Virus record (IMG/VR): IMGVR_UViG_2909298281_000003
From: a virus
Lineage: Duplodnaviria > Heunggongvirae > Uroviricota > Caudoviricetes
Strand: one strand, 5' to 3'
Length of the DNA: 44,769 bases
The translations under genes were made by a program, and so were the position numbers. Of this stretch, positions 1-16,710 are shown piece after piece; the stretch's first letter is position 1; each line of letters starts with the position of its first letter. The notes under the pieces were generated by a model. That model worked only from the letters and a program-made list of their open reading frames with translations. It was not told the DNA's origin and did no database searches.

Positions 1-3349
<3,349 letters not shown>

Positions 3350-3350
<1 letters not shown>

Positions 3351-3655
3351 TATTTCACCTCTTGCTGTGTCATTGTTGAAAAATGGATACCAGCTCGTTG
3401 CTGCCAGACGATCCAACCGAGAGTCATATCCCATGCCATGTATTCGTTATCGCCGTTTTTTACTCTCCGACGATCTACTAAGTCACCGAAACGCTTTTCC
3501 ATGAATAATTCATAGGCTTCGCGTTCATCTGGCTCTACTTCCAGAGATACGAGTGCGATTTCATAAGCACGGCGCTCAATATCGTCTCGAACCTCTAGGC
3601 TGCTGATTCGTTCTTTGATTTCTTTAATCAGTTCTTTATTGGTAAATGTGGTCAT
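3350..3655 (-). CDS. yfdT: Early-left operon protein, YfdT-like (101 aa)
   Basis: ORF length and position match the CPS-53 yfdPQRST block; acidic small protein. Confidence 0.55.
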
Positions 3656-4017
3656 TATGCTCCAGCCTCCGGTGCTTTTGGCATTACTGCCCAGTGAGTG
3701 ATATTGACGTTTTCAAGGTCCCCGACCTGAAATGTCCACTGCCATTCTCCGGTTTCTTTTTGTCCCCAGGTGTACCAGAGAGAACGCCAGCCAATCAGCC
3801 AGCCTTCTCCATTAGCATCAAATAACAGAACACTTTCATTTGCTGGTGGCAGTTCAGCTGACACTGGTATTATTTTGTTTTCCAGTGCCGCACATTTAGC
3901 TTCAAGCGCGTCGAATTTACGTAACAGGTACTCAGCATTTGTTTCATTCACTTTCAGATCTCGCGGTACACATTTCCCGCGAAGAAACCCTTCCATTTCG
4001 AAAACATTCATGCGCAT
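3655..4017 (-). CDS. yfdS: Early-left operon protein, YfdS-like (120 aa)
   Basis: 120-aa ORF, start overlaps upstream gene stop (translational coupling). Confidence 0.55.
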   Translation of the reverse strand: MRMNVFEMEGFLRGKCVPRDLKVNETNAEYLLRKFDALEAKCAALENKIIPVSAELPPANESVLLFDANGEGWLIGWRSLWYTWGQKETGEWQWTFQVGDLENVNITHWAVMPKAPEAGA

Positions 4018-4544
4018 TTGCGTAACTCCGATAAATCGTTAAAACGTTCCATAAACATCCCGTAGGCATGACCCGGTGCCAGTGGAATCACGTTGAACAT
4101 CTCTGTTGCCGGGATGCCTTCCAGTACAGGCCAGAAAGAGCCATCATCAAGCCCGAGAGCGCGGCGTTCGGTTGCCAGCATGATGAGATCGGCATATTTC
4201 ACGGGTGTACTCATAACTGGGGGTAACCCGTATTTCTCACGGATTACGGCGTCTATTTTTTCTTCCATCCGTTTATAGTCAGGAAGAAGGCGTTTCAGTG
4301 GTGCGGGAATGTCCTGGCAATACGCTTCTGTTGCATCATGCATTAACGCTTCAAAAGCAAATTCCTGCGGCACCAGCTGGCTGCAAAGAACCGCATGTTG
4401 GGCGACGCTGTAGAAGTGCGAAAGATGACCGGCAAAGCGACAGATATTTGAAAGGGAAACCGCGATATCGTTAATATCGATGTCGTCTTTATTTATCCTG
4501 TCATAATAAAAATGCTTCCCGGAAAAAGTTTTAATAAATGACAT
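4008..4544 (-). CDS. yfdR: HD-domain phosphohydrolase, YfdR-like (178 aa from the internal ATG)
   Basis: Conserved H..HD motif (ALMHDATEAY); GGAGAA ribosome-binding site before ATG at 4544. Confidence 0.65.
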   Translation of the reverse strand: MSFIKTFSGKHFYYDRINKDDIDINDIAVSLSNICRFAGHLSHFYSVAQHAVLCSQLVPQEFAFEALMHDATEAYCQDIPAPLKRLLPDYKRMEEKIDAVIREKYGLPPVMSTPVKYADLIMLATERRALGLDDGSFWPVLEGIPATEMFNVIPLAPGHAYGMFMERFNDLSELRKCA

Positions 4545-4671
4545 TTTGTTCTCCACGTATATGCACTGCACCGCGCTGAATTCTGGTAAAAGGAAGCCCT
4601 CACCATCCGGTGATTATTGAGTTAATTACGTTTCCATAAATGCCCCCGCAGGGGCATTTGCAGTAATGAAA

Positions 4672-5496
4672 TCAGGCGGTGAAAGTACCAATAAAGGTTT
4701 CTACTTTGCTGTCCTTGAATTTCTCAACAAGCAGATCACGAAATTCGTTAGCCATTTCTTCCTGCACCGCTTCCAGCTGAATAATGCGCAGAACCAGTAC
4801 AGGACGATCGCCAGTGATAATGCTGAGGCGTAATTTAAACGGACGTTCTTTCAGACCTTCAAACGGAACGCATTTAAATTCAAATGCCACTGGCATAATG
4901 TCTTTGGTCTTCGCTTCGACAGACTCCATCAGGGAGCGTTTGCCGCTGAAGTCATTATCTTCAAAATCAGCGGTCTGGTTTGCTTCAATCGTGATTTTAC
5001 GGACTGCCGCAGCCGCTTTTGTTGCCTGAATGGTGTCACCATTAGCATCAAAGCCCACAAGGTAGTCGGCCCAGTCTTCGATCCATTCTGCCAGTGACTT
5101 CTGGGAGTTACGCTCGCCGTTAACAGACAACAGAGCAGAGAACGGTGCTGTCTTTTTCAGTTTGAGAGTGGCAGTGTTATCTGCGTGACCTGGCTCATCA
5201 ATAGTACCCAGGTTAAGCACACTGATGGCACGCATATTATCGGCATCGATAAAGCAGCGGGTGCCTTCATCTGCAAGATCTTTAGAATAACGGGTAAAAT
5301 CATCGATGCTGGCAGTGGAAAGTGCACCACGGAAACGGAAGCGATTTAAATTAAATTTTTCCAGATCATGAATGCGGAAATTCTCAGGCAATGCCACAGC
5401 ATCGGCACCAATCTTACTGATAATTTCATTAACACCCTGAGCAGAAATAAGGGCATGGATTTGATTAATTGCGGTTGCGTCTAAGTTCTGAGACAT
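4672..5496 (-). CDS. yfdQ: DUF2303-family protein, YfdQ-like (274 aa)
   Basis: 274-aa ORF in a codon-consistent frame; length matches YfdQ. Confidence 0.6.
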
Positions 5497-5561
5497 AATA
5501 AGTCCTCACTATATAAAGATATTCAGTGATGAGATAAATAATCAGTTTATTACGAACGATA

Positions 5562-5924
5562 TTAACGACCTGCTGCGCGGAGTTTTCCGTCAGGTTCACC
5601 GGCAAGAGTCAGTAATTGTCCCTGGTCTTCCTGCAGAATAGTCAGGCGACCACCGCGATTGACATACATCGGCGTTTCGGTGGTGTCTTCTTCGGAAATT
5701 TTCCCGCGGTTAGTCGGGCGAACATATGAGAGTTTGTGTTTGATTTTCACACGGTTCTCATCAAACGGTTCGATTTCCAGATTGAGTGAGACCTTCCCTT
5801 TGGTTTTCGTGTTCATCACACCGGAAGCGACTTCACTGAGAACTGCGCCGATTTTGGTTTCAAATACGCCGCCGTCCAGCTCCCCGATAAATGCCTGCAC
5901 ATCAGTACTGCGTTCGCTAGCCAT
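5562..5924 (-). CDS. yfdP: Early-left operon protein, YfdP-like (120 aa from internal ATG MASERS...)
   Basis: GAGGAG ribosome-binding site 7 nt upstream of ATG at 5924-5922; the upstream 55 codons of the track ORF look non-coding. Confidence 0.55.
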   Translation of the reverse strand: MASERSTDVQAFIGELDGGVFETKIGAVLSEVASGVMNTKTKGKVSLNLEIEPFDENRVKIKHKLSYVRPTNRGKISEEDTTETPMYVNRGGRLTILQEDQGQLLTLAGEPDGKLRAAGR

Positions 5925-6394
5925 TTTGCTGCTCCTCATCATATCGACCCTGCAAGGTCGGTTGGTTTCTCCACAAAACAGAGAAGAACACCTGCGGTGG
6001 CAGCCGCCCGGATGGATTGGGTTATGAGCCCGTCGTCCGGTGATGCTCTTCTCTGTTTTGCAAAAAAGGACGGTACCAGCCGGAAGCAAGGGTACAAACT
6101 GGTACCGCCAGGACTACACACAGCATAAAGTTGTGGTGCCGGGTGCCTCCCGGTGCCTGGCGAAGGTTGCACACTAGGCGGGTGGGTATCCACAGAAGGT
6201 CGACTGTCAGCCTCAACCTTAACCCGCGTGCGCTGAGCCGCATTCACCACAACGCTAAGGATTCTCTCTGGTTGAAAATACTTAGCTGTTATGTGCCTGC
6301 TTTTAGCCACATCAGGCGAGGTGGACCTGGTTATTCCCCAACAACAAGGATTCGGTTAATCTGGATATCCCCAACAACAATAAGAGTATTCAAT

Positions 6395-6910
6395 GTGATC
6401 GCTGAATTAACGGCAGCAATGACGGCTATTCGTGAAACAGCCCAGATTGCAAAACTAATGAACGAGGCAAAAACTCAAGCTGAAGTAAATGCGGCTATTG
6501 GTGAGCTGAACTCAAAGCTTGCGTCTATTCAGCGCGAATGCGTGTCTCTCGTTGAACTGGTGGGCTCTTATCAAGAAATAAATGCTTCTCTCAAAGCTAA
6601 AATTGCAGAATTCGAAAACTTTGAGGCTCAGACGGAAGGCTATATCCTTAACCAACTTGAGTCGGGTACTTTTGTATACTCGAAGGAGGTAATCGTGAAC
6701 GGTGGCAGCATAACCATGCATCTTTGCCCAAAATGTTTTGGACAAAAGATAGTATCGATACTTCAACCATTCCCAGTTAGCGAAGATGAGCTTTTTCATA
6801 AAAGCAGATGCCTCCACTGTGAAAATAAGTTTCTGATGAATAAAAATCCGGATTACGTATCGCCTCCATCCATTGAGGAGTTGTCCAGAAAACTTAACGG
6901 CAATCTGTAG
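6395..6910 (+). CDS. Hypothetical coiled-coil protein with a C-terminal CxxC...CxxC zinc ribbon; candidate immunity-region accessory (moron) gene
   Basis: Coding-like sequence starts near GTG 6395 or ATG 6419; motifs CPKCFGQK and CLHCENK; followed by an intrinsic terminator; opposite strand to the early-left operon. Confidence 0.5.
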   Translation: MIAELTAAMTAIRETAQIAKLMNEAKTQAEVNAAIGELNSKLASIQRECVSLVELVGSYQEINASLKAKIAEFENFEAQTEGYILNQLESGTFVYSKEVIVNGGSITMHLCPKCFGQKIVSILQPFPVSEDELFHKSRCLHCENKFLMNKNPDYVSPPSIEELSRKLNGNL

Positions 6911-6950
6911 ATTACTACTGTTGTGGATATCCAGATTGTTAAAGAGCTAA

Positions 6951-6972
6951 GCGTCCTGTAGGGCGCTTTTTT
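6951..6972 (+). terminator. Rho-independent terminator after the coiled-coil gene
   Basis: Stem gcgtcc/gggcgc with tgta loop, followed by TTTTTT. Confidence 0.55.
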
Positions 6973-7058
6973 GTTGCTAACGAATCATCCTGGACTTCAT
7001 ATGCCCCAGGCGGCTACTTCGTGGGCGTCCTGCCTGTTCGTTATCTTTGATATAAAAT

Positions 7059-7121
7059 CTAACTTAACTTAGTTATCATGGCAAGAGAAAACACCAAACT
7101 TTTCTTAGTTCGGTGCCTTAG
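7059..7121. promoter_or_regulatory. OL-like operator cluster, with presumed leftward promoter
   Basis: Repeated half-site palindromes CTAAC-N4-CTTAG (7059-7072), CAAAC-N4-CTTAG (7095-7108) and a further CTTAG at 7117-7121, just 3' of cI. Confidence 0.45.
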
Positions 7122-7137
7122 TTAGAGAAGAGAGGTC

Positions 7138-7764
7138 TTAGAGTTCGTATTGAACTCCTTTGACTACACCAATGATAAGGCAATTACCATTGATAGGGAT
7201 GTTGGGATACCGAGGATTTAATGGCACTAAAAACTTTTGAGGGCCATCGATGACTAATTTTTTTACTGTAGCTTCGTTTGTTCCATCAAGTCGAGCGATG
7301 ACTATTTTTCCATGACGAGGTTCTGCATCTGGATCTACAATCACTGTTGCGCCTTCTGGTATTGTTGGGAGGCCATTAGGGTTAGTCATGGAGTCACCTT
7401 TAACCTCTAATGCAAATGAGTTATCACCAACCTTTAATGATGTATCTACCCACTTGTCCACTTCACTAAACACTTCTGCTGCCCTGCACTCAGTAAACTG
7501 CCCAGCCTGAACCCACGATATTACAGGAACTCTGCGCATGTTTGTGACGAGTTTGCCTTCAAACTCAGCACCATAAAGAATGTAATCTATTGACGTATTG
7601 AAGAACTTCGCTAATTTCGAAAGTGCCTCCCCGCCAGGGGTATTGATGTCTTTCTCCCAGTACCCCACAGCAACGTCGCTTACTCCACAAAATTTACCCA
7701 ATTCTTTCTGGGACGTTCTGGTAACTCTTCTCAGAGCTTTTATACGCTGACCAACCGTTTCCAT
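7138..7764 (-). CDS. cI: CI-type prophage repressor (HTH_XRE N-domain plus S24 LexA-like peptidase C-domain)
   Basis: 208-aa ORF; Ser/Lys dyad context (GDSM ... VKKL); divergent from cro. Confidence 0.85.
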   Translation of the reverse strand: METVGQRIKALRRVTRTSQKELGKFCGVSDVAVGYWEKDINTPGGEALSKLAKFFNTSIDYILYGAEFEGKLVTNMRRVPVISWVQAGQFTECRAAEVFSEVDKWVDTSLKVGDNSFALEVKGDSMTNPNGLPTIPEGATVIVDPDAEPRHGKIVIARLDGTNEATVKKLVIDGPQKFLVPLNPRYPNIPINGNCLIIGVVKGVQYEL

Positions 7765-7786
7765 AGGAGCACCATTTCTTTAATTG

Positions 7787-7849
7787 CTAAGTAATCTTAG
7801 TTTTTATTGACCAAAGATAGATTTGTAATTAGCATCTAACAAAACTTAG
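7787..7849. promoter_or_regulatory. OR-like operator/promoter region (PRM/PR) between cI and cro
   Basis: Perfect palindrome CTAAGtaatCTTAG at 7787-7800 and CTAACaaaaCTTAG at 7836-7849; TTGACC -35-like at 7807-7812; GGAGGG ribosome-binding site before cro. Confidence 0.5.
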
Positions 7850-7861
7850 TTTGGAGGGCGT

Positions 7862-8062
7862 ATGACAACTGACGATATCGAAAGCTACTTCGGCAGTATT
7901 GAGAAAGTTGCTGCTTTTTTCGGCATAACAACTGAAGCCGTTTATCAGTGGCGAAACCGTCCGGGCCAGTTAATTCCAAAAGGACGTGCAGCAGAAGCTG
8001 CATATAGAACTTGCGGACGGTTGCCATTTAAACCTGAGCTTTATGAAAAATCTAATGGATAA
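7862..8062 (+). CDS. cro: Cro-like HTH regulator (66 aa)
   Basis: Small HTH ORF divergent from the repressor, ribosome-binding site GGAGGG. Confidence 0.75.
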   Translation: MTTDDIESYFGSIEKVAAFFGITTEAVYQWRNRPGQLIPKGRAAEAAYRTCGRLPFKPELYEKSNG

Positions 8063-8651
8063 ATCGATTAACAGAAACCACAGAACGATGAGGCTAACCG
8101 TGGGTAAGCATCACTGGAAAGTAGAAAAACAGCCTGAGTGGTACGTGAAAGCTGTCAGAAAAACTATCGCAAAGTTGCCGGGTGGTTACGCTGAAGCAGC
8201 TGACTGGCTGGATGTAACAGAGAACGCATTATTTAACCGCCTTCGTGCCGATGGCGATCAGATTTTCCCGCTGGGATGGGCAATGATTTTGCAACGTGCT
8301 GGTGGAACTCACTTCATTGCTGACGCAGTGGCGCAGTCTGCAAATGGCGTCTTTGTGTCTCTTCCTGACGTCGAGGATGTGGACAACGCCGATATTAACC
8401 AGCGCCTGCTGGAAGTCATTGAACAGATCGGCAGTTATTCAAAACAGATTCGTTCAGCAATTGAAGACGGTGTAGTGGAACCGCATGAGAAGACAGCAAT
8501 TAACGACGAGCTGTACCTCTCAATTTCGAAGCTGCAGGAGCATGCAGCACTGGTCTATAAAATTTTTTGCATTTCAGAAAGTAATGACGCCCGCGAGTGT
8601 GCAGCTCCGGGCGCCGTGGCGTGTCGTGACTGTGGAGAAACTAACGCATGA
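8043..8651 (+). CDS. CII-like regulatory protein (CP76-type, about 202 aa)
   Basis: Start ATG 8043 overlaps the cro stop; position downstream of cro; family assignment from memory. Confidence 0.45.
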
Positions 8652-8986
8652 ACAGTTTAACAACACACTACCGTCGCTCGCAACTGATTGCGCTTCCTGT
8701 ACCGGGTGGAAAAGCGAAGGTGGAGTATTGCTATGCAGTAAATGTACCAGGTGACAGGGAAATTGTAACCCACAGCTTTGCAGAGTGGGCTGTGGGTGAT
8801 TTCAACCGGCAGAAGGAGACAGTCCTTTGCGACAAGTTAACCGCTGGTTCAAAGATCACTACGGAGTGCCCGTCAGAGTCATTCGTTGGGAGCCGGAAAC
8901 ACAACGTGTTATCTACCTCCGCGAAGGCTATGAGCATGAGTGCTTCAGCCCGCTCGAACAGTTTCGTCGTAAATTCAGGGAAATAG
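8648..8986 (+). CDS. Hypothetical protein; probable frameshift, with the C-terminal half continuing in another frame to 9006
   Basis: N-terminal 57 aa look protein-like, then the frame becomes Ser-rich junk while the adjacent frame 8800-9006 reads [44 protein letters not shown]. Confidence 0.4.
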
Positions 8987-8995
8987 AGGTCGGTC

Positions 8996-9922
8996 ATGAG
9001 CACTAAATTAACCGGCTATGTATGGGATGGTTGCGCTGCATCAGGCATGAAATTATCCAGCGTGGCAATTATGGCCCGCCTGGCTGATTTCAGTAATGAC
9101 GAAGGTGTGTGCTGGCCATCAATTGAAACCATTGCCCGCCAGATTGGCGCGGGGATGAGTACCGTCAGAACGGCTATCGCACGGCTGGAAGCAGAAGGCT
9201 GGTTAACGCGTAGGGCGCGTCGCCAGGGTAACCGCAATGCGTCGAATGTTTATCAGCTTAACGTTGCGAAGCTTCAGGCAGCGGCATTTTCTCAACTGTC
9301 AGATTCTGACCCGTCAAAATCTGACCCGTCAAAATTTGATGCGTCGAAATCTGGCAAAAAAGCGGGTTTTCACCCGTCAGAATCTGGTGGGGATCCGTCA
9401 GTAAAATCAAAACATGATCCGTCAGATAAAAAAACTTCTCGTCCGGACGCTTCGCAACCGGACACGCAGACGGCTGAACAGGATTTTTTAACTCGCCATC
9501 CTGATGCGGTTGTATTCAGCCCTAAAAAGCGCCAGTGGGGGACGCAGGATGATTTGACCTGCGCACAGTGGCTCTGGAAAAAAATCATCGCCCTGTACGA
9601 GCATGCCGCCGAATGTGACGGCGAGGTGGTTCGTCCCAAAGAACCGAACTGGACAGCCTGGGCAAACGAAATTCGCCTGATGTGTGTGCAGGATGGTCGT
9701 ACTCATAAACAAATCTGCGAGATGTACAGCCGCGTCAGTCGCGATCCGTTCTGGTGCCGTAACGTGCTCAGCCCGTCGAAGCTGCGGGAAAAATGGGATG
9801 AGCTTTCCCTGCGCTTATCGCCGTCCGTCAGCACGTACACCGAAAAACGCGAAGACCCGTACTTCAAAGCCAGTTACGACAACGTGGACTACAGCCAGAT
9901 CCCGGCAGGATTCAGGGGGTGA
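8996..9922 (+). CDS. Replication initiator, O-like (HTH N-domain, iteron-containing linker)
   Basis: 308-aa ORF; N-terminal winged-helix region; internal iteron array encoding the DPSKSDPSKFDASKS repeats. Confidence 0.75.
   Translation: MSTKLTGYVWDGCAASGMKLSSVAIMARLADFSNDEGVCWPSIETIARQIGAGMSTVRTAIARLEAEGWLTRRARRQGNRNASNVYQLNVAKLQAAAFSQLSDSDPSKSDPSKFDASKSGKKAGFHPSESGGDPSVKSKHDPSDKKTSRPDASQPDTQTAEQDFLTRHPDAVVFSPKKRQWGTQDDLTCAQWLWKKIIALYEHAAECDGEVVRPKEPNWTAWANEIRLMCVQDGRTHKQICEMYSRVSRDPFWCRNVLSPSKLREKWDELSLRLSPSVSTYTEKREDPYFKASYDNVDYSQIPAGFRG
9305..9430. repeat. Iteron array (putative replication origin) inside the O-like gene
   Basis: Six direct copies of core CCGTCA(A/G)(A/T)AAT: ctgacccgtcaaaat x2, gcgtcgaaatctg, cacccgtcagaatctg, gatccgtcagtaaaatc, gatccgtcagataaa. 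Confidence 0.65.
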
Positions 9923-9924
9923 TC

Positions 9925-10413
9925 ATGAGTCTTTTGAATGACGTTCAGAAATTCATTGAAGCCCATCCGGGGTGTACTTCCGGAGACATTGCGGATGCTT
10001 TTGCAGGTTACTCACGACAGCGCGTTCTGCAGTCAGCAAGCAAGTTACGTCAGAGTGGGCGTGTGGCTCACCGTTGTGAAGGGGATACACGCAGACATTT
10101 CCCGCGGCTGACTGAGATACCGCAGGAGCCGGAACCGCAACCAGTTCGTGAATCCAGACCTGTGCGCAATTTCTATGTCGGCACTAACGATCCCCGGGTG
10201 ATTTTGTGCCTGACCCGCCAGGCGGAAGAACTGGAGTCCAGGGGCTTATACCGTCGTGCTGCAACGGTGTGGATGGCGGCATTCCGTGAAAGCCACTCCC
10301 AGCAAGAGCGAAACAATTTTCTTGCGCGTCGTGAGCGGTGTTTACGGAAAAGCAGCAAGCGCGCTGTATCGGGTGAAGAGTGGTATCTGTCAGGGAATTA
10401 CGTGGGGGCTTAA
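9925..10413 (+). CDS. Hypothetical protein, possibly a PerC-like regulator
   Basis: 162-aa ORF, ATG at 9925 just after the O-like stop; C-terminal LYRRAATVW motif. Confidence 0.4.
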   Translation: MSLLNDVQKFIEAHPGCTSGDIADAFAGYSRQRVLQSASKLRQSGRVAHRCEGDTRRHFPRLTEIPQEPEPQPVRESRPVRNFYVGTNDPRVILCLTRQAEELESRGLYRRAATVWMAAFRESHSQQERNNFLARRERCLRKSSKRAVSGEEWYLSGNYVGA

Positions 10414-10739
10414 TGACGACGTTAACTCAATGCCAGCAGCAGGTGCTGGATATGCTGATTTCTTACCAGAAAGAACGTGGCTTCCCGCCAACCAATCAGG
10501 AGGTGGCTACCATGCTGGGATACCGTTCAGTGAATGCAGCGGTGGAGCATCTTCGCGCACTGGAGAAAAAAGGCGTCATCACGATAAAGCGTGGCGTGGC
10601 CCGGGGCATCACGCTTCATACCGCGGTGAAGGACGACGACAGCGAGGTGGCCGGGATTATCCGCGCACTGCTTGCTGGTGAGGAAAACGCCAGGCTGCGT
10701 GCAGCCCACTGGTTACATGAGAGGGGGCTGAAAGTATGA
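10413..10739 (+). CDS. LexA-N-terminal-like DNA-binding protein without peptidase domain
   Basis: Start overlaps previous stop (TAATG); winged-helix motif QEVATMLGYRSVNAAVEHLRALEKKGVI. Confidence 0.5.
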   Translation: MTTLTQCQQQVLDMLISYQKERGFPPTNQEVATMLGYRSVNAAVEHLRALEKKGVITIKRGVARGITLHTAVKDDDSEVAGIIRALLAGEENARLRAAHWLHERGLKV

Positions 10740-11125
10740 AGCTGATTCTGCCTTTTCCACCCAGCGTGAACACCTACTGGCGACACCCCAACAAAGGGGC
10801 ATTTGCTGGTAAGAGCCTGATAAGCGCGGCGGGGCGAAAATTCCAGAGTGCGGCGTGCACAGCAATAGTTGAGCAGTTACGTCGTCTGCCGAAACCAACG
10901 TCGGCACCTGCTTCAGTGGAGATCGTGTTGTTTCCTCCGGATAACCGGATCCGCGATCTGGACAACTATAACAAGGCGCTGTTTGACGCCCTGACCCACG
11001 CGGGTGTGTGGGAAGACGACAGCCAGGTGAAAAGAATGCTGGTGGAGTGGGGACCGGTTATCCCGGAAGGGAAGGTCGAGATCACTATCAGTAAGTACGA
11101 GAAAACGGCGGGTGCAGCCGCCTGA
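10736..11125 (+). CDS. rusA: Holliday-junction resolvase RusA
   Basis: YWRH ... DLDNYNKALFDALTHAGVWEDDSQV signature. Confidence 0.85.
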   Translation: MKLILPFPPSVNTYWRHPNKGAFAGKSLISAAGRKFQSAACTAIVEQLRRLPKPTSAPASVEIVLFPPDNRIRDLDNYNKALFDALTHAGVWEDDSQVKRMLVEWGPVIPEGKVEITISKYEKTAGAAA

Positions 11126-11144
11126 TCAAGAGGAGAAACGAAGT

Positions 11145-11942
11145 ATGAATAATCTGATGGTCATTGATGGTATTGAAGTTCGTCGTGATGCTTATGGGCG
11201 TTACAGCCTGAACGATCTGCACAGGGCTGCCGGTTCTCTGGATAAGCATAAGCCTGCATTCTGGCTCCGCAATGAGCAAACTGAACGTTTAATAAGCGAG
11301 TTGCAGATTTGCAACTCGGTCAATATAGAGCCAGTTAACGTTATTCGTGGCGGAAATAACCAGGGGACGTATGTCTGCAAAGAACTGGTGTATGCCTATG
11401 CAATGTGGATCAGCCCGTCATTCCATCTGAAGGTGATCCGTACTTTCGATATGGTAACCAGCGCATCGGAAAAATTATCCGGGCAGGCTGCTGACAAGAT
11501 GCAGGCTGGCGTGATTCTGCTGGACTTTATGCGCCGGGAGTTAAACCTGTCTAACTCTTCAGTGCTTGGTGCCTGTCAGAAACTCCAGGAGGCTGTTGGC
11601 TTACCGAATCTGGCACCGCGCTATGCCATTGATGCTCCTGCTGACGCGCCTGATGGCTCAAGCCGTCCCACGCTGTCACTGAGTGCACTGCTGAAGCAGT
11701 ATGGTATCCGCCTGACAGCTAATCAGGCATATCACCAGATGGTGAAGCTGGGGATCGTCGAGCAGCGCGAACGATACAGCCGTACCGCTATTAACAACAT
11801 CAAAAAATTCTGGTCGCTGACAGCGAAAGGCTGCATGTTCGGCAAGAACATCACCAGTCCCGCAAATCCGCGCGAGACGCAGCCGCATTTCTTCGAATCC
11901 CGATTCCCTGAGCTGTTAAAGCTGCTCGATACCGTTCATTGA
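11145..11942 (+). CDS. KilA-N domain protein
   Basis: ATG 11145 with AGGAGA ribosome-binding site; N-terminal KilA-N-like region. Confidence 0.6.
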   Translation: MNNLMVIDGIEVRRDAYGRYSLNDLHRAAGSLDKHKPAFWLRNEQTERLISELQICNSVNIEPVNVIRGGNNQGTYVCKELVYAYAMWISPSFHLKVIRTFDMVTSASEKLSGQAADKMQAGVILLDFMRRELNLSNSSVLGACQKLQEAVGLPNLAPRYAIDAPADAPDGSSRPTLSLSALLKQYGIRLTANQAYHQMVKLGIVEQRERYSRTAINNIKKFWSLTAKGCMFGKNITSPANPRETQPHFFESRFPELLKLLDTVH

Positions 11943-11943
11943 G

Positions 11944-12939
11944 GTGACCGTGAGAGCACTACTGACCCCTGAAATTGCCCCGCGTATGGGGATCGTATTG
12001 TTCAGGCCCGGTTCAGAGCTGATGCCCCTGTTTATGCAGGGGCGTGTACTGCTGGAGCCTGAGCCGGAGCATTATTCATCTTTCGCCAGTGGTGCCGTTC
12101 CCGCGGCATCACAACCGCTGGCGGATGATCCTGCCGTTCGGGCCGTGTTCCGTAATGAGGCAGTGATTCGTCGTGCTGGTGGGGTGGAATGTCTTGAAAG
12201 CTGGTTACTTCGTGAAAAAGGCTGCCAGTGGCCTCATTCCGACTGGCACAGCGAGAACATGACCACAATGCGACACGCGCCGGGCGCAATCCGTCTGTGC
12301 TGGCACTGCGATAATCAGTTACGTGATCAGTTCACGGAGCGGCTGGAATCAATGGCAACGGATAACTGTGCCCATTGGGTGTTGTCTGTAGTCCGTCGGG
12401 ATCTCGATTTTAATGATAACCATGCCGTGACAATGCCGGAACTGTGCTGGTGGCTGGTTCGTAATGACCTGGCGGATGCCTTACCGGAAAGCGCAGCCCG
12501 TAAGGCACTGAGATTACCGAAGTCTGTTTTGCCGTCTGTCACCCGGGAAAGTGACCTTGTGCCTTCGGTTCCTGCCACCAGCATTATCCAGGATAAAGCG
12601 AAAAAGGTGCTGGCGCTGAAAGTGGATCCGGAGTCGCCGGAGTCTTTTATGTTACGCCCCAAACGTCGTCGCTGGGTTAATGAACAGTACACGCGCTGGG
12701 TTAAGACGCAGCCGTGTGCATGTTGTGGAAAGCTAGCTGATGATCCGCATCATCTGATAGGCCATGGTCAGGGTGGAATGGGTACAAAAGCGCATGACCT
12801 TTTTGTGCTGCCTTTGTGCAGAAAACACCACGACGAACTGCATGCGGATACCGTGGCATTTGAAGAGAAGTATGGCTCCCAGCTGGAGCTGATATTTCGT
12901 TTTATCGATCGCGCACTGGCGATTGGTGTGCTGGCCTGA
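11944..12939 (+). CDS. DUF968-family protein (YdfU/YbcO-like) with Cys/His-rich C-terminus
   Basis: C-terminal CACCGK ... [30 protein letters not shown] motif. Confidence 0.6.
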
Positions 12940-12956
12940 TTTTGTGGAGAAAGTTA

Positions 12957-13340
12957 ATGCGTGATATTCAGATGGTTCTTGAACGTTGGGGAGCGTGGGC
13001 GGCTAATAATCATGAAGATGTGACCTGGTCGTCCATTGCCGCCGGTTTTAAGGGATTAATTCCTTCAAAAGTAAAATCTCGCCCGCAATGTTGTGACGAT
13101 GACGCGATGATCATTTGCGGGTGCATGGCCCGTCTGAAAAAGAACAACAGCGATTTGCACGATTTATTAGTAGATTATTATGTAGTCGGTATGACATTCA
13201 TGTCACTGGCAGGTAAGCATTGCTGCTCTGATGGTTATATCGGGAAAAGGTTACAGAAGGCTGAGGGCATAATTGAAGGGATGTTAATGGCATTAGATAT
13301 CCGGTTAGAGATGGATATCGTTGTTAATAACTCTAATTAA
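12957..13340 (+). CDS. Q: Late-gene antitermination protein Q
   Basis: Position immediately before the lysis region; GGAGAAAG ribosome-binding site before ATG 12957; family assignment from memory. Confidence 0.6.
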
Positions 13341-13361
13341 TATGCCAATTGTTTACTGAAA

Positions 13362-13391
13362 GTTATTAAAAATGGGGCGTTGCAACGCCCC
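13362..13391 (-). terminator. Rho-independent terminator of the porin transcript
   Basis: Perfect stem ggggcg/cgcccc followed on the minus strand by ATTTTT. Confidence 0.6.
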
Positions 13392-13529
13392 CAAAAATAA
13401 AGGGTAATATATAACAGAAGGTTTATATAGTTAGAAGCAAGGTTGTGCTCCTAAAGGAAGTGGCTTGAGGGAGCCACTTATATGTTGGGGAGGCAACGCC
13501 TCCCGCAACATATCTTTTTCGTAATCAGA
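13362..13529 (-). ncRNA. ipeX: IpeX-like 3'-UTR RNA of the prophage porin gene
   Basis: 168-nt untranslated, hairpin-rich stretch between the porin stop and its terminator, the arrangement described for ipeX downstream of nmpC. Confidence 0.35.
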
Positions 13530-14627
13530 TTAGAACTGGTAAACCAGACCTACAGCAACGATGTCATCAGTGCTTACACCGAGTGCTTTAGTGAAGTCAT
13601 TTTTGTCAAGCAGGTTGATTTTGTAATCAACGAAAGTAGACATATTTTTGTTGAAGTAATAGGTTGCACCTACATCAACATATTTGACTAAGTCCTGATC
13701 GCCCCATACTCCAAGATCCTTACCTTTAGATTGCAGGTAAGCAACGGACGGACGCAGACCGAAATCGAACTGATATTGTGCAACAGCTTCGAAGTTTTGA
13801 GCTTTATTAGCAACGAAGTGATCAGCAAATACAGTCATATTCTGGGTTTCAGAATAGGTAGTGGCCAGGTAAATGTTGTTAGCGTCATATTTCAGACCTG
13901 CGGCCCAAACTTCTGCATTTTTACCGGAAGCAAATACTTCAGGAAGAACTTTCCCTGCATTAACTTGAGTGTCGGTACGATCAGATTTCGCATAAGTTGC
14001 ACCGATACCGAATCCTTCGTATTCATAGGTAGCAGAGAAACCGAAGCCATCACCGTTACCTTCGGTGTAGTTATCGAAATCGCTACGATCGTTTTTGCCT
14101 TGGTACTGAGCAGCAAAGTTCAGACCATCAACCAGACCAAAGAAGTCGTTGTTACGATAGGTTGCAACACCAGTGGTGCGACCAGTCATGAACACATCTG
14201 TTTGGGTCCAGGTATCGCCACCGAATTCTGGCAGAACGTCAGTCCACGCACCGATGTCGTATGCTACACCGTAGTTACGGCCGTAATCGATTGAGCCGTA
14301 GTCACCGAATTTCAGGCCTGCAAATGCAAGACGGGTTTTGTCTTTGGAGGAACCTTGAGATTCAGCGCGGTTGCCTTTGAATTCATATTCCCACTGACCG
14401 AAACCAGTCAGCTGATCGTTGATTTGGGTTTCGCCTTTGAAGCCCAGACGAACATAAGTAGTATCACCATCATCTGCATCGTTAGAGGAAAAGTAGTGCT
14501 TGGCATTAACTTTCCCGTACAGATCCAGCTTGTTACTGTCTTTATTATAAATTTCAGCTGCCTGAGCAGACATCGCCATCAGTACTGATGCAGCTACAGC
14601 AGAAATTGCCACTGTTAATTTTTTCAT
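13530..14627 (-). CDS. nmpC: Phage-encoded OmpC-family porin (NmpC/Lc-like)
   Basis: 365-aa ORF with signal peptide and C-terminal aromatic residue (…YQF). Confidence 0.9.
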
Positions 14628-15215
14628 CGTGAGCCCTTTTTTTTGAACTATTATTAAAAAATGATGTCACTGCGCGATAAATATTCATCTAATCAATGTG
14701 ATTATTTCAAGATGTAAGTTTTAGTTTCTCATTTAATTTGTGAAGTAGATCTCTATTTTTATCTGAACTTTTTCTATCGAAACCTATTTATGGCTCTTAT
14801 TTGAACAAAAATAAATCTATTAGCTAATTTATATTAATGGCTGTTATTTATGGTGGTTCTATAATTCGTCTGTTTAATTTAAACCAGCTAAAAATAACAC
14901 TGGAAATTATTTATTGGTTATTTGTTGAAGTTTTCTTATGTATTTGTGGTGATGTTTTGAACACTCGGTAGCATTCTCATAAATATCATTCAGTGGTTTA
15001 CGTACGTAAAAAATTGGTTATGCTGTTAAGAGTGGTTACTTCGTCACACAGCTTAAACCCGCCGTCGAGCTGGTTTTTCCATTTTTTGAGTCTCGATATT
15101 AGCTGATAACTCAATACCTGAGTTATTCACTGACTCGGAGTCAGTTACGTTTCTGCTTTTTTGCGATACGTTGTATTCCCTCAATTTACACCCGCTTTGT
15201 CTGCGAGGTGGGGTT

Positions 15216-15431
15216 ATGAAATTCATGGATAAGTTAACAACTGGAGTCGCCTATGGCACCTCAGCAGGTAGTGCCGGTTACTGGTTTTTACAGCTGCTCG
15301 ATAAAGTCACTCCCTCACAGTGGGCAGCAATAGGTGTGCTGGGTAGCCTGGTATTTGGCCTGCTGACGTACCTGACAAACCTTTATTTCAAGATTAAAGA
15401 AGATAAGCGCAAGGCCGCGAGAGGTGAATAA
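15216..15431 (+). CDS. S: Phage-21-type class II holin (pinholin S21-like), dual-start motif MKFM
   Basis: 71-aa product [26 protein letters not shown]…; two transmembrane segments. Confidence 0.85.
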
Positions 15432-15928
15432 TGCCTCCATCATTACGAAAAGCCGTTGCTGCTGCTATTGGTGGCGGAGCAATTGCTATAGCATCAGTGT
15501 TAATCACTGGCCCAAGTGGTAACGATGGTCTGGAAGGTGTCAGCTACATACCATACAAAGATATTGTTGGTGTATGGACTGTATGTCACGGACACACCGG
15601 AAAAGACATCATGCTCGGTAAAACGTATACCAAAGCAGAATGCAAAGCACTCTTGAATAAAGACCTTGCCACTGTCGCCAGACAAATTAACCCGTATATC
15701 AAAGTCGATATACCGGAAACAACGCGCGGCGCTCTTTACTCATTCGTTTACAACGTGGGTGCTGGCAATTTTAGAACATCGACGCTTCTTCGCAAAATAA
15801 ACCAGGGCGATATCAAAGGCGCATGTGATCAGCTGCGTCGCTGGACATACGCTGGCGGTAAGCAATGGAAAGGCCTGATGACTCGTCGTGAGATTGAGCG
15901 TGAAGTCTGTTTGTGGGGGCAACAGTGA
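15431..15928 (+). CDS. R: SAR endolysin (lysozyme with N-terminal signal-anchor-release domain)
   Basis: 165-aa ORF with Gly/Ala-rich N-terminal transmembrane segment. Confidence 0.85.
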
Positions 15929-16385
15929 GCAGAGTAACCGCGATTATATCCGCTCTGATTATCTGCATCATCGTCAGCCTGTCATGGGCGGTCAATCATT
16001 ACCGTGATAACGCAATCGCCTACAAAGTCCAGCGCGACAAAAATGCCAGAGAACTGAAGCTAGCGAACGCGGCAATTACTGACATGCAGATGCGTCAGCG
16101 TGATGTTGCTGCGCTCGATGCAAAATACACGAAGGAGTTAGCTGATGCGAAAGCTGAAAATGATGCTCTGCGTGATGATGTTGCCGCTGGTCGTCGTCGG
16201 TTGCACATCAAAGCAGTCTGTCAGTCAGTGCGTGAAGCCACCACGGCCTCCGGCGTGGATAATGCAGCCTCCCCCGACTGGCAGACACCGCTGAACGGGA
16301 TTATTTCACCCTCAGAGAGAGGCTGATCACTATGCAAAAACAACTGGAAGGAACCCAGAAGTATATTAATGAGCAGTGCAGATAG
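15913..16385 (+). pseudogene. Rz: Spanin Rz (i-spanin), frameshifted by loss of one C in the run at 16271-16275
   Basis: N-terminal frame reads lambda-like Rz to …GVDNAASP then fuses to the Rz1 C-terminus; the Rz C-terminus [36 protein letters not shown] is open in the adjacent frame to 16385. Confidence 0.7.
16145..16326 (+). pseudogene. Rz1: Spanin Rz1 (o-spanin lipoprotein) embedded in Rz, disrupted by the same single-base deletion
   Basis: [25 protein letters not shown]… lipobox; in this sequence the frame ends early at 16294 while the expected C-terminus [16 protein letters not shown] is in the Rz N-terminal frame. Confidence 0.65.
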
Positions 16386-16416: not shown

Positions 16417-16710
16417 TTATTTTGAGCAATACACACGCGCTTCCAGCGGAGTATAAATGCCTAAAGTAATAAAACCGAGCAATCCATTTACGAATGTTTG
16501 CTGGGTTTCTGTTTTAACAACATTTTCTGCGCCGCCACAAATTTTAGCTGCATCGACAGTTTTCTTCTGCCCAATTCCAGAAACGAAGAAATGATGGGTG
16601 ATGGTTTCCTTTGGTGCTACTGCTGTCTGTTTGTTTTGAACAGTAAATGTCTGTTGAGCACATCCTGTAATAAGCAGGGCCAGCGCAGTAGCGAGTAGCA
16701 TTTTTTTCAT
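16417..16710 (-). CDS. bor: Bor lipoprotein (serum-resistance moron)
   Basis: 97-aa ORF MKKMLLATALALLITGCAQQ… matching lambda Bor. Confidence 0.9.
   Translation of the reverse strand: MKKMLLATALALLITGCAQQTFTVQNKQTAVAPKETITHHFFVSGIGQKKTVDAAKICGGAENVVKTETQQTFVNGLLGFITLGIYTPLEARVYCSK

Follow-up and report, generated by a model that had tools for sequence, protein, structure and literature searches.

A LexA DNA-binding domain without its protease, encoded beside a PerC-family protein in the early operon of a lambdoid Escherichia coli prophage

The window discussed here, a stretch of 44,769 nucleotides, is a lambdoid prophage of Escherichia coli. Its O-like replication initiator gene, rep, is followed by two small open reading frames (ORFs), and the second of these, ORF-B, is the main subject of this article. 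ORF-B encodes a stand-alone LexA N-terminal-domain protein, with the winged helix but without the S24 peptidase. We propose, at a probability of about 35%, that it is a RecA-insensitive LexA mimic, dimerised by a C-terminal hairpin, expressed with the early lytic genes and directed at SOS-type operators of the host. ORF-A, the first of the pair, is a YfdN-type protein of the PerC family. A first-pass annotation had described two regulator-like genes after the replication gene, the first with a PerC-like C-terminal motif and the second with a LexA-type winged helix and no S24 domain. These descriptions are borne out by what follows, and two features can now be added to them: an N-terminal winged helix in ORF-A, and a conserved C-terminal helical hairpin in ORF-B. 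The elements of ORF-B that carry the argument are the following:

10413-10739, plus strand: ORF-B, stand-alone LexA N-terminal-domain protein (108 amino acids)
10530-10568, plus strand: recognition helix of ORF-B, VNAAVEHLRALEK (residues 40-52, preceded by S39; from the translation)
10635-10721, plus strand: C-terminal helical hairpin of ORF-B (residues 75-103; AlphaFold2 helices 75-88 and 93-103)

Profile searches with Pfam, TIGR00498 and PHROG, a check suggested when the gene was first noticed, support a LexA-type N-domain in ORF-B. The Pfam LexA_DNA_bind model (PF01726) is matched from end to end by residues 1-65 (model positions 1-65 of 65, E 2.9e-19), and phrog_362, annotated by PHROG as "transcriptional repressor", is matched with an E-value of 7e-58. 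The TIGR00498 lexA model is covered at positions 1-91 of 203 only, scoring 67.4 bits against a cut-off of 110.95. A sequence search of the PDB retrieves the LexA entries 1LEA, 1JHH and 3JSO (E ~1e-15). The AlphaFold2 model of ORF-B (predicted local distance difference test, pLDDT, 82) superposes on DNA-bound LexA 3JSO with a root-mean-square deviation (rmsd) of 1.0 Å over 68 residues at 50% identity (Foldseek). In LexA itself, the S24 domain with its catalytic Ser119 and Lys156 makes the repressor cleavable. Pfam finds no Peptidase_S24 match in ORF-B, and the protein ends at residue 108. Because the catalytic domain is missing, RecA* is not expected to be able to induce self-cleavage of ORF-B. 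In PADLOC, ORF-B gives only a weak, winged-helix-level match to a CARF model (E 3.6e-4), ORF-A matches none of the defence models, and neither is assigned to a defence system.

The residues that would touch DNA are also largely those of LexA. Contacts by helix 3 of LexA are made by S39, N41, A42, E44 and E45 (PMC3091678), and the corresponding residues of ORF-B are S, N, A, V and E, so that four of the five are kept; at position 40 it has V where LexA has P40. Across 30 family members, S39 and N41 never change; A42 is found in 26 sequences and E/D45 in 23. K53 and the wing residues R64-G65-I66 are invariant in the family as well. Both are shared with the E. coli LexA N-domain (1LEA, 3JSO), whose winged-helix fold is the same, and the wing of LexA has been credited with fixing the rigid spacing of its half-sites (PMC8565304). 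The predicted DNA-contact surface of ORF-B is LexA-like, with one contact systematically changed.

The two proteins differ by the E44-to-V and P40-to-V replacements, and by a conserved 40-residue hairpin tail that is absent from LexA. This tail, which follows the winged helix, consists of a flexible linker and two helices, the linker being modelled with low confidence (mean pLDDT 59 for block 71-80). Its consensus, xxLLRALLxxExxARxRAxxxL, is kept in homologues of 105-135 amino acids down to ~40% identity, and tail-bearing homologues occur in Escherichia, Citrobacter, Salmonella, Cronobacter, Klebsiella, Raoultella, Enterobacter, Atlantibacter and Kosakonia. We infer that the hairpin would be a dimerisation element replacing the C-terminal domain of LexA. 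One can also imagine that the tail modulates cleavage by entering, in trans, the active site of the host's LexA or that of the S24 repressor of the phage. The prophage repressor (7138-7764) does have an S24 domain, and ORF-B residues 82-91 (IIRALLAGEE) align with the LexA cleavage-site strand (LVGRVAAGEP, A84-G85): MAFFT pairs E78-E91 of ORF-B with E74-P87 of LexA, which puts A88-G89-E90 opposite A84-G85-E86. Yet the segment is predicted to be helical rather than a strand, G89 is not conserved (it is N in the Citrobacter members), and the motif is absent from the Cronobacter, Klebsiella and Kosakonia subfamilies. Since it would also leave the strong conservation of the DNA-binding surface unexplained, this role for the tail is barely credible.

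In the preferred model, ORF-B would dimerise through its hairpin and bind DNA by means of its recognition helix, with four of the five LexA base contacts, and its LexA-like wing. Once the host LexA has been destroyed, it would re-impose repression on part of the SOS regulon; alternatively, its targets may be the LexA-controlled genes of rival elements. Such an action would be akin to that of a LexA N-terminal cleavage fragment left undegraded. The LexA(1-84) fragment is, like ORF-B, an N-terminal domain deprived of the protease/dimerisation domain. After cleavage, this N-terminal part of LexA can still bind SOS boxes and repress to some extent, and its removal by ClpXP is needed for full induction (PMC3159453; PMC10584840). 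ORF-B differs from LexA in that it is phage-encoded and comes from an early lytic operon, and its binding to SOS boxes is a prediction.

A link to the SOS response is found in relatives of the gene. In Klebsiella prophages (L005-L007, 5360-6393), the -10 element of a TTGAAC-17-TATACT promoter overlaps a consensus-like SOS box, TACTGTTTATTTATACAGTA. This promoter drives dinI, then a 96-codon ORF and then a 130-residue LexA_DNA_bind homologue located ~600 base pairs (bp) downstream of it, with no plus-strand terminator in between. DinI inhibits the co-protease activity of RecA. It is described as an SOS-induced protein that binds RecA filaments (PMC9926225). The Klebsiella operon is predicted to be SOS-inducible, pairing DinI with a truncated LexA. 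No dinI homologue was found in the window. It had been suggested at the outset that the stand-alone domain could be a non-cleavable repressor of SOS boxes. This is plausible because the fold, residues S39, N41, A42 and E45 and the wing are kept, because the free LexA N-terminal fragment represses (PMC10584840), and because the Klebsiella dinI operon appears to be under SOS control.

The proposal can be extended to the whole ORF-B family, although in this form it is doubtful. The family would consist of RecA-proof LexA mimics that re-silence SOS promoters after prophage derepression, thereby guarding their own lytic cycle and restraining competitors. The promoters concerned may include those of toxins such as tisB, of sulA, of the mutagenic polymerases, of colicins, and of the LexA-controlled antirepressors of rival prophages. 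In the Klebsiella branch, dinI and the truncated LexA would then act as an SOS-induced shut-off pair. As Stx2 phages and about half of E. coli genomes carry the gene, its influence on the SOS response would be widespread.

Several points weigh against the SOS-operator model. Position 44 is never E in the ORF-B family, in which V, A, L, F, T or N is found instead, while in the full-length LexA sequences retrieved with an NAAE-type recognition helix it is E. Positions 40, 43 and 45 differ between subfamilies, the Klebsiella type being NAVLLH. Since all hosts share one SOS box, a pure LexA mimic would be expected to show constant specificity, and yet the subfamilies vary. The SOS-box reading is therefore weakened by the loss of E44 and by the variation at positions 40 and 43-45 in the face of a constant host box. 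Dimerisation through the hairpin is itself a prediction, as is the half-site geometry that would result from it. The only characterised truncated-LexA phage protein, gp6 of GIL01, has diverged toward a phage-specific site and is an activator. The literature yielded no experimental study of the mechanism of either ORF-A or ORF-B, or of LexA-domain proteins of enterobacterial phages. The position weight matrix (PWM) with which SOS boxes were sought spans 20 bp and is based on a set of 26 SOS operators of E. coli.

A search for LexA boxes, also suggested by the first-pass annotation, was made with this matrix over the entire 44.8-kb window. It gave nothing above chance: the best score, 15.3, is at the 95th percentile of shuffles. 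The corresponding site (12670-12689) lies inside the DUF968 gene and is not conserved in phages SfV or mEp460. With one mismatch allowed, CTGT-N8-ACAG is present at 27 sites in the window against 15 expected, none of them promoter-associated. No convincing enrichment of CTGT/ACAG palindromes is found in the window for spacers of 0-20, even though spacings 8 and 14, with the largest excess, have 3-4 exact sites where ~0.5-0.7 would arise by chance; none of these sites matches an SOS box. Among related segments, strong SOS-box matches (PWM 22-25) occur at unrelated places: inside the cI-like repressor gene of mEp460 (L001 684-703), at the start of the orf48 DNA methyltransferase gene of SfV (L012 34170-34189), and upstream of a minus-strand gene in a Klebsiella phage (L011 3994-4013). 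There are none in the Cronobacter, Salmonella or mEp390 segments.

The cI/cro operators of the prophage are CTAAG-N4-CTTAG palindromes in which the CTGT half-site is absent, and the immunity operators were rejected as ORF-B targets on this ground. The initial suggestion that ORF-B acts on the prophage operators, or as an anti-repressor, is disfavoured by the nature of these operators, by the lack of an SOS box, and by the fact that the gene recombines independently of the immunity region. This last point is seen when the window is compared with SfV and mEp460 by blastn: among the compared regions, only one block is shared, at 93-97% identity.

9847-12951, plus strand: mosaic block inherited with ORF-B (last 75 nucleotides of rep, yfdN, ORF-B, rusA, KilA-N gene, DUF968 gene)

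On either side of it, the immunity region, the body of rep and Q are different in SfV and mEp460, and three Q types are found across the carriers. No gap within the block exceeds 20 bp, and neither the window nor the co-inherited block yielded a conserved palindrome that might serve ORF-B, although failure to detect a motif does not prove that there is none. For a regulator to work, its operator has to travel with it. As the block has no room for one, a phage-borne operator is disfavoured, and host-constant targets or a non-transcriptional role are favoured. Since the prophage also lacks LexA-type sites, host SOS-type (CTG-containing) operators would be the likeliest targets of ORF-B.

These data bear directly on the main alternative, namely that ORF-B is a phage-specific transcription factor that has drifted away from the SOS box and acts on a phage promoter, for instance that of late or accessory genes. 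The precedent is GIL01, a Bacillus tectivirus. Its gp6, a LexA homologue in truncated form, activates the late promoter P3, at which it recognises GaCACAnnTGTGaC at -43.5 (PMC6182141). Like ORF-B, gp6 is a phage-encoded LexA-type winged helix without a protease, and its gene is in an early operon beside replication genes. The family-wide loss of E44 fits such a drift, as do the subfamily differences at positions 40 and 43-45, which look as if operators were co-evolving in each lineage; the PHROG annotation as a repressor is in keeping with it too. However, the E. coli-type gene (94-97% protein identity) is paired with unrelated immunity regions, unrelated rep genes and three Q types, and an operator travelling with it in 9847-12951 would have to sit in coding sequence. 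No conserved palindrome offers itself for this purpose, and the best SOS-like site of the block is not maintained in SfV or mEp460. Late transcription in the carrier phages depends on Q, as do the late genes of this prophage, whereas gp6 activates a late promoter. The proteins themselves also differ: gp6 has 66 amino acids, lacks the C-terminal hairpin and derives from Bacillus LexA, and it has a known phage operator and a key residue, K38, while no operator is detectable for ORF-B. BLASTP gives no alignment between the two at E-values up to 100, and orthology was rejected on that basis. As gp6 is in addition so short and tailless, the two proteins appear to have arisen independently, by convergence. 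On balance, a phage-specific factor of this kind is rather unlikely.

ORF-B may, on the other hand, not be a transcription factor at all, but rather a DNA-binding accessory that recruits or positions RusA, the DUF968/HNH nuclease or the replication machinery. In 6/6 contexts, the LexA-like gene lies 0-2 genes upstream of a DUF968/HNH gene, usually directly before rusA, and in mEp390 it comes directly after the replication gene. Two singletons seem, on a by-eye reading, to fuse a LexA-type winged helix to nuclease-like modules: P0154 (240 amino acids) with a DUF968-like Cys/His-rich C-terminus, and P0207 (241 amino acids) with an HNH/AP2-like one. Along with the constant nearness of the gene to DUF968, they hint at a functional link. 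But shared transcription timing alone may account for synteny in a mosaic nin-like region, P0154 and P0207 are single-sequence clusters that could be deletion artefacts, and RusA and HNH nucleases are generally known to work without such partners in other phages. The P0154 fusion of a LexA DNA-binding domain to DUF968 was considered as evidence for a functional linkage and, being a singleton cluster, was given little weight. An accessory role of this sort is quite unlikely.

The distribution of the pair is wide. The 815-bp stretch that encodes both proteins (9925-10739) is 100% identical in many E. coli chromosomes, including those of NCTC86, IHE3034 and APEC O18, and 2681 of the 5426 complete E. 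coli genomes contain it. In RefSeq, the first product is called "yfdN: PerC family transcriptional regulator" and the second "LexA family transcriptional regulator". The pair is carried intact by viable phages such as SfV (orf40/orf42), SfII, SfIV, mEp460, cdtI, Ayreon and many Stx2/Stx2c phages. The ORF-B counterparts (SfV orf42, SfII, mEp460 gp46, cdtI, Stx2 phages) are 94-97% identical and occupy the same site before rusA. The order rep - PerC - [methylases] - LexA-like - RusA - DUF968 - Q is kept in Cronobacter, Salmonella and mEp390 at 45-55% protein identity. Both genes are real and widespread, already recognised by profile libraries and named in RefSeq, and thus ordinary as a discovery; the ORF-B family appears to be functionally uncharacterised. 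In strain UTI89, differential fluorescence induction sequencing (DFI-seq) identified as induced in urine a fragment that extends over rusA, the LexA-like gene, dam and yfdN1, no gene being assigned (PMC5404293). An over-expression screen for filamentation in the same strain enriched a region containing yfdN2, and the effect was not attributed to yfdN (PMC6206680).

Most carrier phages have a dam methyltransferase gene between yfdN and the LexA-like gene, whereas here the two abut. Orphan DNA methyltransferases are recurrent cargo at this junction (10411-10415 in the window, where there is no methylase): a 654-bp dam gene in E. coli/Shigella phages (L001 4489-5142), a 392-residue Dam in Cronobacter (L008 4826-6004), and Dam plus a 576-residue C5-methylase in Salmonella (L009 3403-6004).

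Some observations could suggest that the pair is evolutionary baggage, decaying or functionless in a defective prophage. The integrase gene is broken by an IS21-family element, and the CPS-53 prophage of K-12 has kept yfdN and lost the LexA-like gene. Against this, both ORFs are intact here and in viable phages, and the fold-defining and DNA-contact residues are kept down to ~40% identity across at least seven genera, which makes the idea highly improbable.

The other member of the pair, ORF-A, has a two-domain architecture:

9925-10413, plus strand: ORF-A, YfdN orthologue of the PerC family (162 amino acids from the ATG)
9931-10104, plus strand: N-terminal winged helix-turn-helix (residues 3-60; AlphaFold2 helices 3-13, 19-25 and 31-44, beta-hairpin 47-60, pLDDT 79-90)
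10192-10356, plus strand: PerC domain of three helices (residues 90-144; AlphaFold2 helices 90-105, 109-122 and 126-144, pLDDT ~90)

RefSeq starts the protein at a GTG at 9919, which gives 164 amino acids. It is identical to K-12 YfdN (b2357) at 155/162 residues (96%) over its full length, and in K-12 the gene likewise comes after the rep/yfdO gene, in the order yfdO - yfdN - yfdM. The PerC motif is confirmed by Pfam (PF06069, residues 98-150, E 9.1e-10; score 39.1 bits, cut-off 22.6), and ORF-A also matches phrog_1324, "transcriptional activator", with an E-value of 1e-77. For the N-terminus, Foldseek retrieves winged helices of the MarR/ArsR/BlaI type (rmsd ~2 Å over 60-67 residues), and there is a weak match to phrog_1687 MarR. 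Residues 63-82 are modelled by AlphaFold2 as a disordered proline-rich linker. ORF-A is thus a YfdN-type PerC-family protein made of a winged helix, a flexible linker and a three-helix PerC domain.

The PerC domain, which scores above the Pfam gathering threshold, is what ORF-A has in common with the PerC/Pch family. PerC of EPEC and PchA-E of EHEC are small single-domain proteins (~90-105 amino acids), whereas the 162 residues of ORF-A include a winged helix and a disordered linker in addition. The group-1 pch genes measure 315 bp (PMC5931665) and encode ~104 amino acids, too few for an extra domain of that size. The PerC core is 40% identical to Sakai PchE over 52 amino acids. Identification as PchE itself was ruled out, as PchE has 90 amino acids and the similarity is confined to this core. 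By analogy with other PerC/Pch proteins, ORF-A probably modulates transcription, but through a DNA-binding domain of its own. Counting against this, two of its short Pch relatives, PchD and PchE, have hardly any effect on ler, the gene that PchA-C activate (PMC5931665). In that Pch study, yfdN was merely deleted as a precaution against interference (PMC5931665).

The genes that surround the pair are these:

7138-7764, minus strand: S24-type repressor gene (S24 domain; early region)
7862-8062: cro-like gene (early region)
7986-8651: CII/CP76-like gene (early region)
8996-9922, plus strand: O-like replication initiator gene, rep (Pfam HTH_36, E 4e-11; phrog_391 "replication initiation O-like", E 3e-134)
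10736-11125: rusA (Pfam RusA)
11145-11942: KilA-N gene (Pfam KilA-N)
11944-12939: DUF968/HNH gene (Pfam DUF968)
12954-13340: antiterminator Q gene
13530-14627, minus strand: OmpC/NmpC-like porin gene, between Q and the lysis genes (an accessory gene among late genes)

Both ORFs follow rep on the plus strand, and the genes are tightly packed. The rep stop codon (TGA at 9920-9922) comes 2 nucleotides before the ATG of ORF-A at 9925. In the TAATG that joins ORF-A to ORF-B (10411-10415), the last base of TAA doubles as the first of ATG, and in the ATGA at 10736-10739 the TGA of ORF-B overlaps the ATG of rusA. On the plus strand, the interval 7835-13154 shows no promoter-like site and the interval 7644-12627 no terminator-like one; a separate transcription unit for ORF-A and ORF-B was rejected accordingly. 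Because the junctions overlap or nearly abut and there are no such internal sites, the pair is part of the rightward early operon, which extends from the immunity region into Q. ORF-A and ORF-B are delayed-early genes, translationally coupled to rep and rusA. From this position they are expected to be made only after the prophage repressor is inactivated, or upon infection. No Rfam family was found within 6000-16000.

Within rep, four to five direct repeats of the TCTGACCCGTCAAAA type with a 15-bp period (9289-9386), followed by two GATCCGTCAG repeats (9392-9430), encode the SDPSKSDPSKFDASKS stretch of the protein. They resemble an origin of the lambda type, in which the iterons lie inside the gene for the initiator. 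An IS21-family element (762-2715; IstB_IS21, E 8e-112; rve integrase core) interrupts the integrase gene of the prophage:

828-1610, minus strand: istB of the IS21-family element
1607-2629, minus strand: istA of the IS21-family element

In NCTC86 intD is uninterrupted, and positions 1-761 and 2716-6379 of the window align to contiguous DNA there. With its integrase interrupted, the prophage is probably unable to excise on its own. Further along, a 97-residue ORF on the minus strand (16417-16710), another accessory gene among late genes, is the counterpart of the iss (increased serum survival) lipoprotein gene in the near-identical NCTC86 prophage.

Whichever reading of ORF-B is correct, the result is mainly a clean-up of genes that were already known and annotated, and an action of the protein on the prophage's own operators is unlikely. 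Should ORF-B turn out to regulate phage genes only, or to assist nucleases, it would be one more uncharacterised gene of the nin region. If it does bind SOS operators, then about half of the sequenced E. coli would have in their prophages, Stx2-converting phages among them, a means of switching the SOS response back off during induction. This would have consequences for Shiga-toxin release, for SOS-driven mutagenesis and for antibiotic tolerance, as well as for the competition among co-resident prophages and colicin plasmids.

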